Part shown: piece by piece, positions 34,058 to 37,537 of the stretch | Numbering within the stretch: the first letter of the stretch is position 1 | Layout: every line of letters starts with the position of its first letter | Assembly (NCBI GenBank): GCA_937976335.1 | Contig: CALJRW010000057.1 | Coordinates: forward strand, 1-63,909 | Direction: 5' to 3' | DNA length: 63,909 nucleotides | Source: an uncultured bacterium | Lineage (GTDB): Bacteria; Bdellovibrionota_C; UBA2361; CALJRW01 | The notes under the pieces: generated by a model | Databases searched by the model: none | The model's input: the letters and a program-made list of their open reading frames with translations, nothing else | What the model was told of the DNA's origin: nothing | Translations under genes and position numbers: made by a program

Positions 34058-34519
34058 ATGAGCAAAGAACCCATAAAAACAGTTACAACTAACAGAAAAG
34101 CCAAATTTAACTATCATATTCTAGATACCTTTGAGGCTGGTATGGTATTAAGAGGTAATGAAATTAAGTCTATAAGGGAAGGTGGAGTTACAATTAACGA
34201 AGCTTATGTGAAAATTGAAAATGATGAAATTTTTCTAATTGGAGCTCATATTAACGAGTACAGCCATAGTGCTGGATTTGAATATAATCCAACTCGCGCT
34301 AGAAAGTTGCTATTACATAAAACTCAGATTTCTAAAATAAGAGGGTCTGTAGAAAAAAAAGGTACAACAATAGTGCCTTTAAAAATTTACTTAAAAGCAA
34401 GAAAAGCAAAAATTGAAATTGCTATAGCAAAAGGTAAAAATGCGCCTGACAAGAAAAAAACAAAGATAAATCAAGAAAAAAAACGTGAAGCAGAACGCTA
34501 TTTGAAAAATAATTATTAG
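34058..34519 (+). CDS. smpB: SsrA-binding protein
   Basis: NRKAKFNY, EAGMVLRGNEIKSIR, RARKLLLHK, GK..PDKK. Confidence 0.96.
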   Translation: MSKEPIKTVTTNRKAKFNYHILDTFEAGMVLRGNEIKSIREGGVTINEAYVKIENDEIFLIGAHINEYSHSAGFEYNPTRARKLLLHKTQISKIRGSVEKKGTTIVPLKIYLKARKAKIEIAIAKGKNAPDKKKTKINQEKKREAERYLKNNY

Positions 34520-34687
34520 CTAGTAGAGATGCTTATTTATCACATAAGATACTTTTAACCTATTATTACCTGAGTTCTCACTTAGAATCTTTATTCTAAA
34601 ATTAGGGTTTTTGTACAACTTAGTAAGATTCTCGTTTACAATAAGTAAACTTTTATCTGCTTGTTATTTGTTACGGAGGAATGGATT

Positions 34688-34951
34688 ATGGGAACTGAAG
34701 TTAGTCATGATGGTGGGAACTTATTACCTGGTGCTGAGAATCTAAAAGTTTCCATATTTAGTAAGTTTAGGAATGAAAAAGGCAGTCTTAGGCATAAAAA
34801 AGAAGCAGCTCCAGCTCAAGTTTCAGAGCTTGAGGATTCTCAACTTCCTAGGGGATATAATCAATTAAAAAACGATAGTTTTCAATATGCCGGTTTGCCG
34901 CGTTTGGTAAGAATTTTACAAAGGCAAGTTAGTGAGAGGGGTGGGGATTAG
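34688..34951 (+). CDS. Small hypothetical protein
   Basis: GGAGGA RBS before ATG 34688; no recognised motif. Confidence 0.45.
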   Translation: MGTEVSHDGGNLLPGAENLKVSIFSKFRNEKGSLRHKKEAAPAQVSELEDSQLPRGYNQLKNDSFQYAGLPRLVRILQRQVSERGGD

Positions 34952-35090
34952 AAAGTATTTCTATATTGTTTTCCTTCTGGGAGACTTAGGGTAATTTTCA
35001 ATTCACTTCAGTATATATTTGAGCATACTTATTCATCGTCAAAATTAAGTTTTTTAGAAACTTTTTTAAAAGTTTTTCGATTAATTGTAT

Positions 35091-35330
35091 ATGAGATATG
35101 TTTATATTTTGAGGAGCGAGAAGGTATTTGCTCAGAGATATACAGGTATTACAAGTGATTTAAAAAAACGTCTTAAGTATCATAATGAAGGTAGATCTAT
35201 TCATACTTCAAAATACCGTCCATGGAGGATTGAAACTTATATAGCTTTTATAGATGAAAAAAAAGCAGTAGAATTTGAAAAATATCTTAAAACTGGTTCT
35301 GGTTGGGCATTTTCATTAAAAAGATTCTAA
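35091..35330 (+). CDS. Minimal stand-alone GIY-YIG nuclease
   Basis: YVYIL…YTG.T.DLKKRL..HN.G…TSKYRPW…A..FEKYLK. Confidence 0.9.
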   Translation: MRYVYILRSEKVFAQRYTGITSDLKKRLKYHNEGRSIHTSKYRPWRIETYIAFIDEKKAVEFEKYLKTGSGWAFSLKRF

Positions 35331-35332
35331 CT

Positions 35333-35554
35333 TCCCACTTCGCCTCAGCTAAGGTTGAGTGCTACGTGGGACGCGTCCCAGTTGTATTTGTTTAGAAAGT
35401 GAGTTTTTACGGTTTTGAGAAATGCCCCACTTCGCCTCAGCTGAAGCTGAGTGCTACGAGGGACACACTCCTAACACAATCAACAAAGAAAGATCAGACT
35501 TAGAACAGGGCCTGCCACACGAAGCACCTAGCCAAAGGCTAGGGCGAAGTGTGG
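35333..35554. repeat. Three copies of a ~40-nt imperfect hairpin motif (two +, one -)
   Basis: CCCACTTCGCC-[hairpin]-GTGCTACG(T/A)GGGAC at 35333-35371 and 35425-35463; inverted copy at 35515-35554. Confidence 0.85.
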
Positions 35555-35917
35555 AGGTGGGGGGATTCGAACCCCCGTCCGAAAAACTTAAACCAAAGCT
35601 TTCTACACGTTTAGTATCCATTTAGTTTCTTACAAATTAGCAACACGGTACAAATACTAATTTGCCAGTCTCAAGTTTTTCACATAAAGAGTAGAGACAG
35701 TCTCTTTATGCAATCCTGTTAGTATTATACTAATAAGCAGCCACAGGCACGCTACTTACTAGCATCACTTTATAAGCTTACGCCGCTAAAGCGAAGTTGC
35801 CCTCTTGGGCGTTATCAAAGTTTGCACTTATGATGTTTTCCGTTTTTTTACCAGGCCAACGGAGTCCTGGACGTGCTTACAATAATCGCGAGAATCCCGT
35901 CGAAACCGGACACCCCC
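35552..35917 (-). ncRNA. ssrA: tmRNA; tag peptide (A)ANFDNAQEGNFALAA
   Basis: 5' GGGGGTG…TTTCGAC; 3' GGACGGGGGTTCGAATCCCCCCACCTCCA; tag frame 35825-35778 ends LAA-stop; smpB 1 kb away. Confidence 0.96.
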
Positions 35918-35928
35918 TTGCTACTCTC

Positions 35929-35934
35929 ATTATA
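35929..35934 (-). promoter_or_regulatory. -10 box (TATAAT) of the tmRNA promoter
   Basis: Exact TATAAT 11 nt upstream of the mature 5' end; -35 is weak. Confidence 0.5.
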
Positions 35935-36076
35935 CACTATAATCATTATTATTAAAAAAATCGAAGTTTACACAGGGAAGTTTTAAGTATAGTGCTTGTA
36001 TTGTAACGAATTACTATTAATGATGTGAGTTAACATACTGAATCAAGCAAATAATCGTAAATATTCGCTTTGGACT

Positions 36077-36237
36077 GTCTGGTGCCGGCAACATTTCTCC
36101 CTTGTTCTTAGCTTCAAATTAAGAAATTGCATATATCGACAAAAATTCTGAAAATTTTCTTAAGTTTTGATTTTTTTTGAGATTATTTCTGGAATGAATG
36201 TTGCTGGCACCAGGCCTTTCGCAGCACCAGGCCTTTC
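36077..36237. repeat. 19-bp inverted repeat pair plus a 14-bp direct duplication
   Basis: GTCTGGTGCCGGCAACATT (36077-36095) versus AATGTTGCTGGCACCAGGC (36197-36215), 17/19; GCACCAGGCCTTTC at 36207 and 36224. Confidence 0.65.
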
Positions 36238-36397
36238 ATAGAGTTAAGGCTAGAAATTTTAGATTTTCTAGAGTTGTTCATTTAAAACCCTATATTATAA
36301 TTAAATACTTAAAATTGTTATATAAAATAATAATAATTTACAATATAGCTGTAAATTGTTATGATAATTTACAGCTATATTGTAAAAAAAGCAGCTT

Positions 36398-37537
36398 ATG
36401 AAATACATACCCAGGGTATTAAATTTAAAGGAAGAATTAAAGAAAAAGTCTTATTTTCTATTAGGCCCTCGTCAAACTGGCAAAAGTACAATTATACGAA
36501 AAGAACTTTCTGATTGTAGAACTTATAATTTACTCTTGAGCGACGTACTTCTAGAGTTAAGTAGAAATCCTTCAATAATAAGACATGAAGTTACGGCAAA
36601 AGATAAGATTGTAGTTATTGATGAAATTCAAAAACTTCCTCAGCTTCTTGATGAGGTTCAATACCTAATTGAAGAAAAAGGTATTAACTTTTTATTGACT
36701 GGATCAAGTGCACGCAAACTAAGACGTGGTGGCGTAAATTTACTAGGTGGGCGCGCTCGTTCAAAATTTCTTTTTCCTTTTACTTCGCATGAACTTTTAA
36801 ATAACTTTAATTTACATAAAGCATTAAATATTGGCTTGTTGCCATCTATTTATTTTTCTGATGAACCACGCAAGGATTTGAAGAGTTATGTAGGAAGCTA
36901 TTTAAAAGAAGAGATAGTTTCAGAAGCTTTAGTTAGAAATATTCCAGCGTTTAGCCGTTTTTTAGAAATTGCAGCACTTGGTAATGCTCAAATGCTTAAC
37001 TATACAAATATAGGAAATGATGCTCAAGTTCCAACTTCAACAGTTGTTGAGTATTATGAAATTTTAAAAGACACTTTAATAATATCCTTTCTACCAGCTT
37101 GGAAAGAAACTATAAAGAGAAAACCTATTTCTACATCTAAAGTGTATTTTTTTGACTCAGGGGTTGTTAGAAGTATTCAATCAAGAAAAGACTTAAGTCC
37201 TAAGACTGAAGCATATGGTGAAGCTTTAGAAACATTTATGCATAATGAAATAAAAGCTTATCTTGAATATAGCGATAAAGAAGGTTTGCATTATTGGAGA
37301 TCAAAGTCGGGTTATGAAGTTGATTTTATAATTGCTGAGAAAGTAGCTGTTGAATTAAAAAGCCAATCTGTATTCTCACCCAAACTTATTAAAGGTCTTA
37401 AAGCATTAAAAGAAGAAAATTTACTTGAAAGATATATTTTAGTGTCAAATATTGAGAGAGAAAAAAATATAGATGGGATAGAGATTTTGCCTATTAGTAA
37501 ATTTTTATCTTTATTGTGGGAGGGAGAGATAGTTTAG
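36398..37537 (+). CDS. AAA_14 ATPase with DUF4143 and a C-terminal PD-(D/E)xK-like domain
   Basis: Walker A GPRQTGKS, Walker B VIDEIQK, LTGSSAR, LLGGRA, KVYFFDSG, YWR..SGYEVDFI…ELK. Confidence 0.9.
   Translation: MKYIPRVLNLKEELKKKSYFLLGPRQTGKSTIIRKELSDCRTYNLLLSDVLLELSRNPSIIRHEVTAKDKIVVIDEIQKLPQLLDEVQYLIEEKGINFLLTGSSARKLRRGGVNLLGGRARSKFLFPFTSHELLNNFNLHKALNIGLLPSIYFSDEPRKDLKSYVGSYLKEEIVSEALVRNIPAFSRFLEIAALGNAQMLNYTNIGNDAQVPTSTVVEYYEILKDTLIISFLPAWKETIKRKPISTSKVYFFDSGVVRSIQSRKDLSPKTEAYGEALETFMHNEIKAYLEYSDKEGLHYWRSKSGYEVDFIIAEKVAVELKSQSVFSPKLIKGLKALKEENLLERYILVSNIEREKNIDGIEILPISKFLSLLWEGEIV

Follow-up and report, generated by a model that had tools for sequence, protein, structure and literature searches.

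What brings together a very small nuclease gene, a group of imperfect hairpins and the 3´ end of a tmRNA gene? At positions 35091-35554 of the window, by which we mean the whole stretch of 63,909 nucleotides analysed here, three hairpins of about 40 nt lie between a gene for a 79-aa GIY-YIG protein and the tmRNA 3´ end (Table 1). The initial annotation suspected either a selfish unit comparable to REP/RAYT systems or an RNA motif affecting tmRNA 3´ maturation. We propose, as somewhat probable, that the region is one copy of a widespread, probably selfish family, REP/RAYT-like in character, with a minimal GIY-YIG nuclease and with CCA ends as targets. In the full-text literature accessible without subscription we found nothing that links small GIY-YIG genes with REP-like hairpins or with the ends of t(m)RNA genes, and the occurrence of such a family at t(m)RNA gene ends in many bacterial phyla is apparently previously undescribed.

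Table 1. Features in and around the hairpin region (positions in the window)
Feature	Position	Strand	Basis
GIY-YIG nuclease gene, UPF0213/SLX1-like clade, 79 aa	35091..35330 including stop	+	Pfam, alignment, PDB profile
Hairpin copy 1, B-type, TTC/TAC loop	35333..35371	+	Fold; R1 model 35331-35373, E 3.1e-5
Small alternative hairpin, possible terminator of nuclease mRNA	35367..35380	+	Terminator scan
Hairpin copy 2, B-type	35425..35463	+	Fold; R1 model 35423-35465, E 2.8e-4
Degenerate "link box" CACACTCC	35464..35471	+	By-eye comparison with L002, L041, L014, L019, L036, L043
Hairpin copy 3, A-type, with CAGGCC tail	35509..35554	-	Fold; Infernal; R1 E 2.5e-6
tmRNA gene ssrA, tag ANFDNAQEGNFALAA	35552..35917	-	ARAGORN; Rfam RF00023, 177 bits

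The nuclease and the hairpins

The 79-aa reading frame scores 52.3 bits in Pfam family PF01541, for which the curated cut-off is 22.6 (E 7.4e-14). The domain spans residues 2-68, and the protein is without a DNA-binding domain; match and length agree with its earlier description as a minimal GIY-YIG nuclease. An alignment of 25 homologues shows no variation at Y3, Y5, Y17, G19, R27 and E63 and hardly any at H31 and N32; the GIY tyrosine, the YIG tyrosine, the arginine and the glutamate presumably have the catalytic roles assigned to them in the GIY-YIG family. When its profile is compared with the PDB, the best hits are UPF0213 proteins (1ZG2, E 1.3e-11; 1YWL, E 8e-6) and SLX1 (E 2e-7 to 2.7e-5); judged by these profiles, UPF0213 proteins and SLX1 nuclease domains are its closest solved relatives. 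Homologues are mostly 79-81 aa long, in a search that admitted 43-139 aa. The family comprises 1,105 representative clusters (50% identity, E <= 1e-10). NCBIfam and PADLOC hold no family for the protein. At E <= 1e-8 the plasmid and phage collections yielded no homologue, and with it no vehicle for transfer.

All three hairpins were found at the positions and on the strands given by the initial annotation, copy 1 beginning 2 nt past the nuclease stop codon (TAA, 35328-35330). Their common plan has an outer stem of 6 bp, followed by a TTC loop, a GC clamp and an inner hairpin that varies; a second GC clamp, a TWC loop and the closing stem complete it. Copy 1 reads TCCCAC / TTC / GC / 17-nt inner hairpin / GC / TAC / GTGGGA, and copy 2 reads CCCCAC / TTC / GC / 17-nt inner hairpin / GC / TAC / GAGGGA, with one mismatch in the outer stem. 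Copy 3, the best R1 match of the genome, has CCACAC as its 5´ arm, an 18-nt inner hairpin and the loops TTC/TTC; the hairpin proper occupies 35515-35554 on the minus strand and the CAGGCC tail 35509-35514. Each copy folds as a two-tier hairpin with a 3x3 internal loop, and the folding z-scores against shuffles, from 53-nt RNA folds of the three copies, are -3.35, -2.17 and -4.85. The inner stems differ in sequence and stay paired, as had been noticed. The repeats were also said to be GC-rich in an AT-rich genome, and the 35400-35599 bin indeed has 51% GC against 32.6% for the genome. Neither folding energies nor stem composition points to a functional strand: the two-strand comparison gave no consistent bias among the three copies, and G.T versus A.C counts in the outer stems are few and mixed. 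A strict word search with the left-flank 9-mer returned nine occurrences in the genome, of which only the three window copies are hairpins; a fourth genome copy, located after tRNA-Val, was found by DNA search.

It is hardly conceivable that the hairpins arose as palindromes by chance or are ordinary intrinsic terminators unrelated to the gene. A gapped pattern built from the common flanks has exactly three matches in the window, 0.01 are expected from shuffles and none of 100 shuffles reaches three; the invariant core of loop and clamp moreover recurs across phyla on covarying stems. GC-rich hairpins between convergent genes are admittedly common, and one small terminator-like site does exist at 35367-35380, the only one on the plus strand in 34500-36400. 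In it, CGCG joins the 3´ arm of copy 1 to a repeated 5´ arm, and a T-rich run follows; the same layout (3´ arm, 4 nt, repeated 5´ arm) also follows hairpins in other phyla. The terminator scan found no T-run after any of the three large hairpins themselves, copies 2 and 3 included, and we reject intrinsic termination as their explanation. A known RNA family was likewise rejected: no Rfam covariance model matches the hairpins at E <= 10 in the window, nor in 13 related loci. A further feature is the link box CACACTCC. In decayed form and on the other strand, it repeats the 5´ half of copy 3, CACACTTC, which allows the two to pair within one strand. In relatives the link box is a perfect complement of 10-16 nt.

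The tmRNA 3´ end

According to the Infernal alignment, the 3´ strand of the tmRNA acceptor ends at 35553 and the discriminator A is 35552. The hairpin element starts directly after this discriminator. There the gene reads CAC, to which the CCA of the RF00023 consensus is aligned, and the terminal CCA of the tmRNA is thus not encoded. The outer stem of copy 3 had been described as using the CCA of the tmRNA acceptor end; the overlap with the acceptor end is real, but the CCA in question is made of C, C and the discriminator A, and is not the terminal CCA. The tmRNA gene of the sister genome G002 encodes its CCA tail and has no hairpin there. An identical hairpin/tmRNA junction is present at the tmRNA genes of G006, G020, G031 and L002. 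In three sequencing runs, represented by DNA contigs and no RNA, the tmRNA ends of other organisms match 35551-35589 with different flanks, and the same contigs contain no joints or variants in the source organism; these comparisons bear on neither expression nor mobility.

Reading frames of at least 40 aa between smpB and the AAA ATPase gene comprise the nuclease, an 87-aa orphan without Pfam match and short frames overlapping the RNA. No integrase-size frame exists between 34001 and 36398. The statement that the element has no integrase therefore stands, as far as ORF size and Pfam scans of some ORFs can tell. The search for a direct repeat of the tmRNA end yielded only a 15/18 match at 34936-34953, within chance.

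Such a junction could mean that the element works in the transcript: a trailer hairpin of the t(m)RNA precursor would either protect its end or guide 3´ cleavage or termination, the copies behind the reading frame would stabilise or terminate the nuclease mRNA, and the nuclease would be a housekeeping or repair enzyme riding on strong tRNA promoters. In its favour, A hairpins without exception occupy the tRNA-sense strand and begin exactly at CCA or at the discriminator. Because the encoded CCA of this tmRNA is replaced, a precise 3´ cut and CCA addition must occur, and this genome has three genes for PolyA_pol-family nucleotidyltransferases. The small hairpin with its T-rich run after copy 1 would also suit an mRNA terminator. 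PMC1839093 treats small COG2827 genes of Caulobacter as candidates for repair nucleases, and one of these genes belongs to the SOS regulon. Several local features speak against this explanation. The hairpin would compete with two acceptor-stem pairs at the source tmRNA, copies 2 and 3 lack the T-run, no Rfam family matches, and the B copies carry the core on the opposite strand, so that one transcript cannot hold both types in like form.

Homologous loci in other phyla

We collected 45 loci (L002-L046) from many phyla with nuclease homologues of at least 48% identity. A tRNA or tmRNA gene lies within 500 nt of the homologue in 30 of them, against a chance expectation of about 1.3% per locus. 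In 27 loci the t(m)RNA ends 63-417 nt upstream on the strand of the nuclease gene, and in three it is convergent and downstream; eight of the 30 genes are tmRNA genes. Among the 15 loci without a called t(m)RNA, seven are cut by a contig end within 300 nt, and in five (L015, L027, L029, L035 and L037, judged by eye) a tRNA-like end in CCA that ARAGORN did not call abuts the hairpin, L027 being counted in both groups. Small GIY-YIG genes and t(m)RNA 3´ ends are thus found together far beyond this one genome, as the initial annotation had expected of a REP/RAYT-like unit. The identity of the tRNA varies among close homologues, which argues against inherited synteny and counts against the transcript-level explanation.

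The intergenic layout is alike in Alphaproteobacteria, Acidobacteriota, Nitrospirota, Armatimonadota, Verrucomicrobiota and Bdellovibrionota. In many phyla the hairpin grammar begins at CCA, and the three nucleotides after it (CAC, GCC, CCC, GGC or GTC) covary with their partner. Within the outer stem of 34 hairpins, five of six pairs show changes on both sides (65 cells), which none of 500 shuffles reaches, and the covariation score is 0.574, compared with 0.046-0.110 in slid controls. The 96.7% pairing in this set is built in, since the 34 hairpins were picked by a regular expression requiring five of six Watson-Crick outer pairs. Inner hairpins range from 4 to 32 nt and are unrelated in sequence across loci. 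The 201,624 bases of the homologue loci hold 41 R1 matches, many of which are training sequences of the model; almost all of them fall between the t(m)RNA and the nuclease gene, a stretch of a few hundred nucleotides.

Orientation of the nuclease gene relative to the hairpin module differs between lineages. In 27 loci the gene follows the t(m)RNA on the same strand, and read-through expression is possible there. In the window, as in L002, L003/L077 and G020, the gene runs opposite to the module, which speaks against the transcript-level explanation. Hairpins occupy both sides of the gene only in some loci (L009, L023, L026), and in five loci of the convergent type the 200 nt upstream of the nuclease ATG contain no hairpin and no conserved sequence. 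We tell two hairpin cores apart, TTCGC and TCGACTCG. More divergent nuclease homologues, with 42-46% identity (G004, G007), stand beside hairpins of like architecture and different core; a divergent enzyme next to a divergent core is what co-evolving enzyme-site pairs would look like.

Copies in this genome and its relatives

The R1 model has 17 matches in this genome: two at t(m)RNA ends, two beside the nuclease gene and 13 dispersed. Among 40 genomes of the same order the number ranges from 0 to at least 89. The genome with at least 89 matches, G032, has most of them away from tRNA genes, contains units nested in the apical loops of other units, and retains only a broken fragment of the nuclease gene. 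Dispersed and nested copies, inverted copies and the variable orientation of the gene all fit poorly with an RNA motif for tmRNA 3´ maturation, and taking both sides together we consider a transcript-level explanation quite improbable.

The hairpin that our genome has at its tmRNA gene is missing from that gene in G002, and the one at tRNA-Val is missing in both G001 and G002. This comparison, proposed at the outset, thus yielded orthologous sites that are empty in sister genomes, but the exact insertion borders are unreadable: relatives differ in the arrangement of smpB and ssrA, and other insertions occupy the flanks of tRNA-Val in G001 and G002. G002 itself has the nuclease gene and a hairpin module away from any tRNA. 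In one metagenome-assembled genome, two contigs share a 348-nt block of 91% identity, consisting of 24 nt upstream, the nuclease reading frame and 87 nt downstream with a B hairpin; one copy lies at tRNA-Ala and the other not at a tRNA. Since the duplicated block holds both gene and hairpin, the gene belongs to the repeated unit.

Presence of hairpins and presence of the gene are only loosely coupled at the level of whole genomes. Both occur in 14 of the 40 genomes, hairpins alone in six, the gene alone in eight and neither in 12, giving a weak association (odds ratio 3.5, two-sided Fisher p = 0.11) in a set whose members are related to one another. One hairpin-only genome, G011, has 13 matches and no nuclease gene at E <= 1e-5. 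Gene and hairpins might therefore be two independent tenants of one hot spot, where REP/MITE-type hairpins are moved by another enzyme, for example a Y1/RAYT protein, the GIY-YIG gene stands separately on its own as a homing-type or cargo gene, and both accumulate 3´ of t(m)RNA genes. These flanks are crowded in any case, with pseudo-3´ ends, an integrase after the tRNA-Val of G002 and other GC-rich repeats. Y1_Tnp domains occur in 35 of 41 genomes of the order, and GTAG, the sequence that tags classical REPs (PMC3733652), is also present in hairpins of the B form. Yet Y1 genes are so nearly ubiquitous that they cannot explain where hairpins are present or absent, and none of the 17 matches in our genome is on a contig with a Y1 gene (its three Y1_Tnp matches are on contigs C5, C65 and C147). 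Further, the gene is accompanied by one core throughout many phyla and the more divergent gene clade by another, the duplicated block joins gene and hairpin within one genome, and the gene with its module in G002 sits away from tRNA, outside the supposed hot spot. We therefore regard separate origins as unlikely.

A selfish family comparable to REP/RAYT remains our preferred explanation. Solo copies, the burst in G032, nesting, empty sites and adjacency to t(m)RNA genes all favour this part of the initial annotation; the weak genome-level co-occurrence (p = 0.11) counts against it.

Comparison with known systems

REP/RAYT systems with their REPtrons, REPINs and BIME arrays likewise consist of short imperfect palindromes with conserved unpaired bases (in part after PMC3733652). 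Their repeats, too, number from few to about a hundred per genome, form arrays and inverted pairs, cluster beside a single small nuclease or transposase gene, vary strongly in copy number between relatives and outlive the loss of the gene. There are four differences. Firstly, their enzyme is an HUH Y1 transposase and ours a GIY-YIG protein, the Y1 contigs of our genome being free of hairpins. Secondly, their hairpins have a GTAG-tagged foot, whereas ours have a two-tier stem, a 3x3 TTC/TWC loop and GC clamps. Thirdly, RAYT genes are flanked by inverted hairpins on both sides, and the nuclease genes in most of our loci on one side. Lastly, the present element forms one of its hairpins with a CCA that belongs to a tRNA or tmRNA gene.

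IS608 has subterminal imperfect hairpins and no terminal inverted repeats. Without an integrase, it inserts directly 3´ of a short, fixed motif with which some of its own bases pair. Elements of the IS200/IS605 family, such as IS608, thus resemble ours in subterminal hairpins, in pairing between element and target and in lacking an integrase. However, the only reading frames between smpB and the tmRNA gene are the GIY-YIG gene and the 87-aa orphan, with neither TnpA nor TnpB, and the present element, unlike that family, has two hairpin types on opposite strands and CCA at acceptor-like ends as its target.

SLX1 is a structure-specific nuclease that cuts branched and stem-loop DNA. It has domain and catalytic residues in common with our nuclease, as do the UPF0213/YhbQ/COG2827 proteins, but SLX1 also contains a RING/PHD domain and needs SLX4. 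Small bacterial COG2827 proteins are treated as putative repair nucleases in PMC1839093. The full-text literature searched contains no report on association of UPF0213/YhbQ/COG2827 proteins with tRNA ends or hairpins.

Homing endonucleases such as T4 Seg and I-TevI exceed twice the length of the 79-aa nuclease and have an additional domain for DNA binding at the C-terminus. We rejected a free-standing homing endonuclease for this reason, the C-terminal domain being absent here. The resemblance is that of a selfish GIY-YIG gene, and T4 segB lies within a tRNA gene cluster (PMC2330249); on the other hand, these genes are phage-borne and without hairpin repeats, and the phage collection lacks our nuclease.

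Integrase-type islands also target t(m)RNA 3´ ends, and tmRNA genes are over-represented in our loci. They differ from the present unit, which measures about 0.4-0.6 kb and has no integrase and no long direct repeat of a tRNA 3´ end.

A possible model of the element

In the model we prefer, the autonomous part would be the gene for a stand-alone GIY-YIG nuclease of 79-80 aa from the UPF0213/SLX1 clade. The cis-acting part would be the module of imperfect hairpins with an invariant core and a CA(A/G)GCC(A) tail: one A hairpin on the tRNA-sense strand and one or two inverted B hairpins adjoining the nuclease gene. The CCA with which the A hairpin always starts would be supplied by the target, for which the model takes the 3´ ends of tRNA and tmRNA genes as well as duplicated pseudo-ends, and the TGG of the element would pair with that CCA. 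We hypothesize that the nuclease acts on DNA and not on RNA. The conserved loop and clamp would let it recognise the hairpin folded in single-stranded or extruded DNA, and it would nick at the hairpin foot or close by. The hairpin units, together with the adjoining gene, might then be copied or moved to new CCA-bearing sites and to apical loops of other copies. Solo hairpins would represent non-autonomous copies.

A bolder proposal, tentative and rather doubtful at present, is that this is a new class of prokaryotic mobile element, in which a stand-alone SLX1-like nuclease of 79-80 aa is the sole protein, the hairpins serve both as its site and as the mobile unit, and targets are found by TGG/CCA pairing. 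Site choice would be made by TGG and the three variable bases pairing with CCA at a tRNA-like acceptor helix. Nicking would be followed by insertion, perhaps by target-primed copying from the freed CCA 3´-OH. Such copying would explain the repeated 5´-arm boxes, the perfect link box, tandem units and nesting in hairpin loops.

Implications

Small stand-alone GIY-YIG proteins (UPF0213/COG2827) are very common and, to our knowledge, have no assigned function. Their consistent link to a hairpin module at t(m)RNA ends offers a testable role. As carriers are available in culture (Mesorhizobium argentiipisi, L011; Elusimicrobium simillimum, L038), biochemistry and genetics are feasible. The REP/RAYT concept, in which hairpin repeats are domesticated or selfish, would gain GIY-YIG nucleases as its second class of enzyme. 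The module may account for part of the clutter in t(m)RNA 3´ flanks, and it illustrates how the CCA can disappear from a tmRNA gene, which from then on needs 3´ cleavage and CCA addition. A structure-specific nuclease of 79 aa with a defined hairpin site could be a useful tool. If the more far-reaching proposal of a new class is true, then the element would be the smallest known autonomous transposition system, and its nuclease with the hairpins would represent a structure-guided, partly sequence-programmable DNA nicking module.

Hairpins between the nuclease gene and the tmRNA

Three hairpins are placed between the stop codon of a small GIY-YIG nuclease gene and the tmRNA 3´ end (see the table). 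All three have a 6-bp outer stem, a TTC loop opposite a TAC or TTC loop, a GC/GC clamp and, inside the clamp, a C-G pair with bulged T followed by an inner hairpin, in which pairing is kept though the sequence is unlike from copy to copy. The initial annotation had described them as structured, GC-rich repeats. This observation stands, because the pattern of their shared flanks matches the three copies only (0.01 matches expected) and the hairpin region has 51% GC in a genome of 32.6%. Since selection keeps the inner sequences, whatever they are, paired within one strand, a folded single strand or a cruciform is indicated rather than a duplex binding site.

Features of the nuclease-tmRNA region
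Feature	Position	Strand	Remark
smpB	34058-34519	+	Pfam SmpB, E 2.9e-52
Orphan ORF, 87 aa	after smpB, before nuclease ORF	+	without family match
79-aa ORF, bare GIY-YIG domain	35091-35330	+	E 7.4e-14
Hairpin copy 1	35333-35371	+	
Hairpin copy 2	35425-35463	+	
Hairpin copy 3	35515-35554	-	
tmRNA gene	35551-35917 (ARAGORN)	-	Rfam 177 bits
AAA_14 + DUF4143 ATPase	36398-37537		matches PADLOC candidate defence family PDC-S01, E 3e-52

It was also proposed that the outer stem of copy 3 uses the CCA of the tmRNA end. The overlap with the acceptor end is real, but this CCA is not the terminal one: it consists of two acceptor-stem Cs and the discriminator. The acceptor 3´ strand ends at 35553, the discriminator A is at 35552, and after it stands CAC where consensus tmRNA reads CCA. 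At 35549-35552 the gene has no encoded CCA tail and the hairpin element begins right after the discriminator, as it also does in the tmRNA genes of three relatives of the same order (G006, G020, G031) and of the homologue locus L002. In the sister genome G002, the CCA tail of tmRNA is encoded and no hairpin is present at that spot. Post-transcriptional CCA addition is plausible, given that three nucleotidyltransferase genes of the PolyA_pol family exist in the genome holding the window (G000) and that an encoded CCA is also missing from several of its tRNA genes; for RNase Z, no match was above the curated cut-off.

Some other features of the region deserve mention. Where the orphan ORF ends, shortly before the nuclease gene, 18 nt (34936-34953) are identical in 15 of 18 positions to the tmRNA 3´ end (35554-35571). 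They may be what decay has left of a duplicated tmRNA end bounding the insertion, or chance, about one such match being roughly expected in the region. Where the tag-coding part of the tmRNA gene ends (35785-35797), the + strand is complementary in 11 of 13 positions (85%) to the 5´ half of copies 1 and 2 (35337-35349, 35429-35441), probably by chance. A copy of an abundant MITE-like element of about 130 bp lies at 36080-36212, with terminal inverted repeats CTGGTGCC(A/G)GCAACATT; these have 83 genome-wide matches (up to 3 mismatches), usually in inverted pairs 110-160 nt apart. At its edge, an exact 14-nt direct repeat, GCACCAGGCCTTTC, is found in two copies 17 nt apart (36207-36237).

Structure of the module

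Read in tRNA sense, hairpin A, to which copy 3 belongs, has the form CCA-NNN / TTC / GC / inner hairpin of 4-32 nt / GC / TWC / N´N´N´-TGG. It is followed by the tail CA(A/G/T)GCC(A), often with a repeat of the 5´ arm next to it, then by a spacer, a link box of 10-16 nt perfectly complementary to the hairpin A start, hairpin B with the hairpin A core on the other strand, and the nuclease gene. In the window, hairpin B is present twice, as copies 1 and 2, and the link box (35464-35471) is decayed. The nuclease gene is here inverted and converges on the t(m)RNA, as in loci L002 and L003/L077 and in G020. No single structure fitted all variants of the module; in Verrucomicrobiota, Lentisphaerota and Desulfobacterota, B is nested within the loop of A.

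The three bases past CCA vary by lineage (CAC, GCC, CCC, GGC, GTC) and their partner bases vary along. Among 34 aligned hairpins, two-sided changes occur in five of six outer pairs (65 cells, reached by none of 500 shuffles), and the covariation score is 0.574 versus 0.046-0.110 with partner columns slid. These hairpins were chosen by a regular expression demanding five of six Watson-Crick outer pairs, which predetermines their pairing rate of 96.7%; information comes solely from the diversity of the pairs. Neither loop nor clamp bases vary from phylum to phylum, as would be expected of a protein recognition site.

Insertion may proceed by copying for which a nicked CCA end serves as primer, or by alternative pairings during recombination. 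Features suggestive of one or the other are the recurring 5´-arm boxes, the link box with its perfect complementarity, the succession of 3´ arm, 4 nt and a second 5´ arm, and units in tandem (loci L002, L019, L039).

Association with tRNA and tmRNA ends

A DNA search of 40 relatives from the same order found copy-3-like hairpins directly 3´ of tmRNA genes (G006, G031) and of tRNA-Ala genes (G012, G008); another follows the tRNA-Val of G000 itself (C14:30010-30058). The second nuclease paralogue of this genome (contig C26, 47% identity) is located 167 nt downstream of tRNA-His, with GC-rich palindromes between them; copies of the MITE-like element at 36080-36212 flank this locus too.

We fetched 73 loci with relatives of the nuclease, one genome per species. 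In the 45 close homologues (L002-L046, at least 48% identity), a t(m)RNA ends 63-417 nt upstream on the same strand in 27 loci and is convergent downstream, as in the window, in 3. Such a neighbor is expected at about 1.3% of random G000 positions, so the predicted association with t(m)RNA 3´ ends holds elsewhere. tmRNA accounts for 8 of these 30 loci; the tRNAs are those for Phe, Tyr, Ser, Ala, Leu, Val, Met, Lys, Arg, Gln and Ile. Seven of the 15 misses have a contig end within 300 nt; in L015, L027 (also among these seven), L029, L035 and L037, a tRNA-like end uncalled by ARAGORN abuts the hairpin by eye, and the others still contain pieces of the module. The hosts belong to Alphaproteobacteria, Acidobacteriota, Nitrospirota, Armatimonadota, Verrucomicrobiota, Lentisphaerota, Planctomycetota, Desulfobacterota, Elusimicrobiota and Bdellovibrionota. 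With such varied tRNA identities, and so many phyla at 50-70% protein identity, the adjacency is not inherited synteny.

In three more distant loci (L047, L050, L055 from Woesebacteria, Saccharibacteria and Microgenomates; 41-44% identity), a tRNA starts 0-25 nt past the GIY stop on the same strand; the tRNA link is kept, with the gene on the other side of the tRNA.

Dispersed and nested copies

A covariance model of the 34 hairpins (R1, E <= 0.01) has 17 matches in G000. Of these, 13 are dispersed and consist mostly of mini-hairpins, which have a 4-nt loop and share the CAAGCC tail; two others are at t(m)RNA ends and two adjoin the gene. At C50:52414-52600, C167:10230-10400 and C59:4480-4620, mini-hairpins are paired inside a repeat of about 250 nt whose own ends are inverted (form AAAAGTAATTTCCGAA / TTCGGAAATTACTTTT).

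The 40 relatives have from 0 to 89 matches each. In G032 we see a burst of at least 89 copies, arranged in arrays (L113-L115) with units nested in apical GCGA or GCAA loops of other units; its sole GIY match is a fragment with a stop codon. Orthologous sites are unlike: unrelated DNA comes after the terminal CCA in the tmRNA gene of G002 and in the tRNA-Val genes of both G001 and G002. Because hairpins also occur 3´ of duplicated pseudo-3´ ends near tmRNA genes of the order, the target looks like the CCA ending an acceptor-like helix rather than a functional gene.

One could imagine an RNA-processing element instead. This is possible for hairpin A alone, but it cannot explain why B copies are inverted, why the gene occurs in two orientations, or why copies are dispersed and nested. 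Furthermore, no Rfam family matches the hairpins, and the sole terminator-like site found is a small one (35367-35380).

Does the nuclease belong to the unit?

A 348-nt block is common to two contigs of one Lentisphaeria MAG (91% identity), comprising 24 nt upstream, the ORF and 87 nt downstream including a B hairpin; one copy adjoins tRNA-Ala, the other no tRNA. G002 has a nuclease gene (67% identical) with a full module and no tRNA near. In 201,624 bases of homologue loci, R1 has 41 matches, many of them training sequences, and nearly all lie in a short interval beside the gene. All six relatives with a close nuclease homologue (E < 1e-27) have R1 matches.

Across the 40 relatives, 14 have both gene and hairpin, 6 hairpin only, 8 gene only and 12 neither (odds ratio 3.5, two-sided Fisher p 0.11, the genomes being mutually non-independent). 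This genome-level co-occurrence is weak and speaks against a tight link. Several hairpin-only genomes are incomplete MAGs, and several gene-only genomes contain a second hairpin type missed by R1; G011, 95% complete, has 13 matches and no gene at E <= 1e-5.

The second type, CCA-TTCGACTCG...CTCGCTCA-TGG-CARGCCA, has the architecture and tail of the first and a different core. In G000 it follows tRNA-Pro and tRNA-Thr (C129) and tRNA-Ser (C145), with tRNA-Arg (C145) a weaker case; in G004 and G007 it follows tmRNA, beside GIY genes of 42-46% identity. Co-evolving enzyme-site pairs would look like this.

Independent tenants of a hot spot are another conceivable explanation. A different GC-rich repeat, starting TTCCCGCTCGGCGCTCGGGCCCAGGGG, is present with duplicated tmRNA pseudo-3´ ends in the tmRNA 3´ flanks of G008, G018, G021, G024, G025, G028 and G030 (L087, L097, L099, L102, L103, L105, L110), which shows that this flank is a multi-tenant hot spot.

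The nuclease family and its presumed role

Among 25 homologues there is no variation at the GIY, YIG, Arg and Glu positions. Of the solved structures, a profile search places nearest two UPF0213 proteins (1ZG2, 1YWL) and the SLX1 nuclease domain; SLX1 is an enzyme that cleaves branched DNA and DNA stem-loops. The family comprises 1,105 representatives of 50%-identity clusters (E <= 1e-10), annotated at source simply as "GIY-YIG nuclease family protein"; neither NCBIfam nor PADLOC has a model for it, and plasmid and phage collections contain no homologue at E <= 1e-8. A Caulobacter paper mentions three small COG2827 genes of unknown role, with repair suggested (PMC1839093). Full-text literature outside subscription journals yielded no description of small GIY-YIG proteins with tRNA/tmRNA ends or REP-like hairpins; the association is not certainly unpublished.

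In REP/RAYT systems the enzyme is a Y1 transposase, whereas here a GIY-YIG nuclease would stand in its place. Y1_Tnp domains occur in 35 of 41 genomes, and in G000 on three contigs, none with a hairpin match; the classical Y1 enzyme is not linked to the hairpins here. In a REP survey, one REP superfamily is stated to have no dedicated transposase (PMC3733652).

The idea of a REP/RAYT-like selfish unit, raised in the initial annotation, thus gains from the t(m)RNA-end siting, the dispersed and nested copies and the gene-hairpin block, and loses from the weak co-occurrence. It is still the best-supported reading, and we lean towards it, if by a narrow measure: a selfish system of REP/RAYT type whose enzyme would be a minimal GIY-YIG nuclease akin to SLX1 in place of the Y1 transposase, and whose putative cognate hairpins reside at t(m)RNA CCA ends and inside each other.
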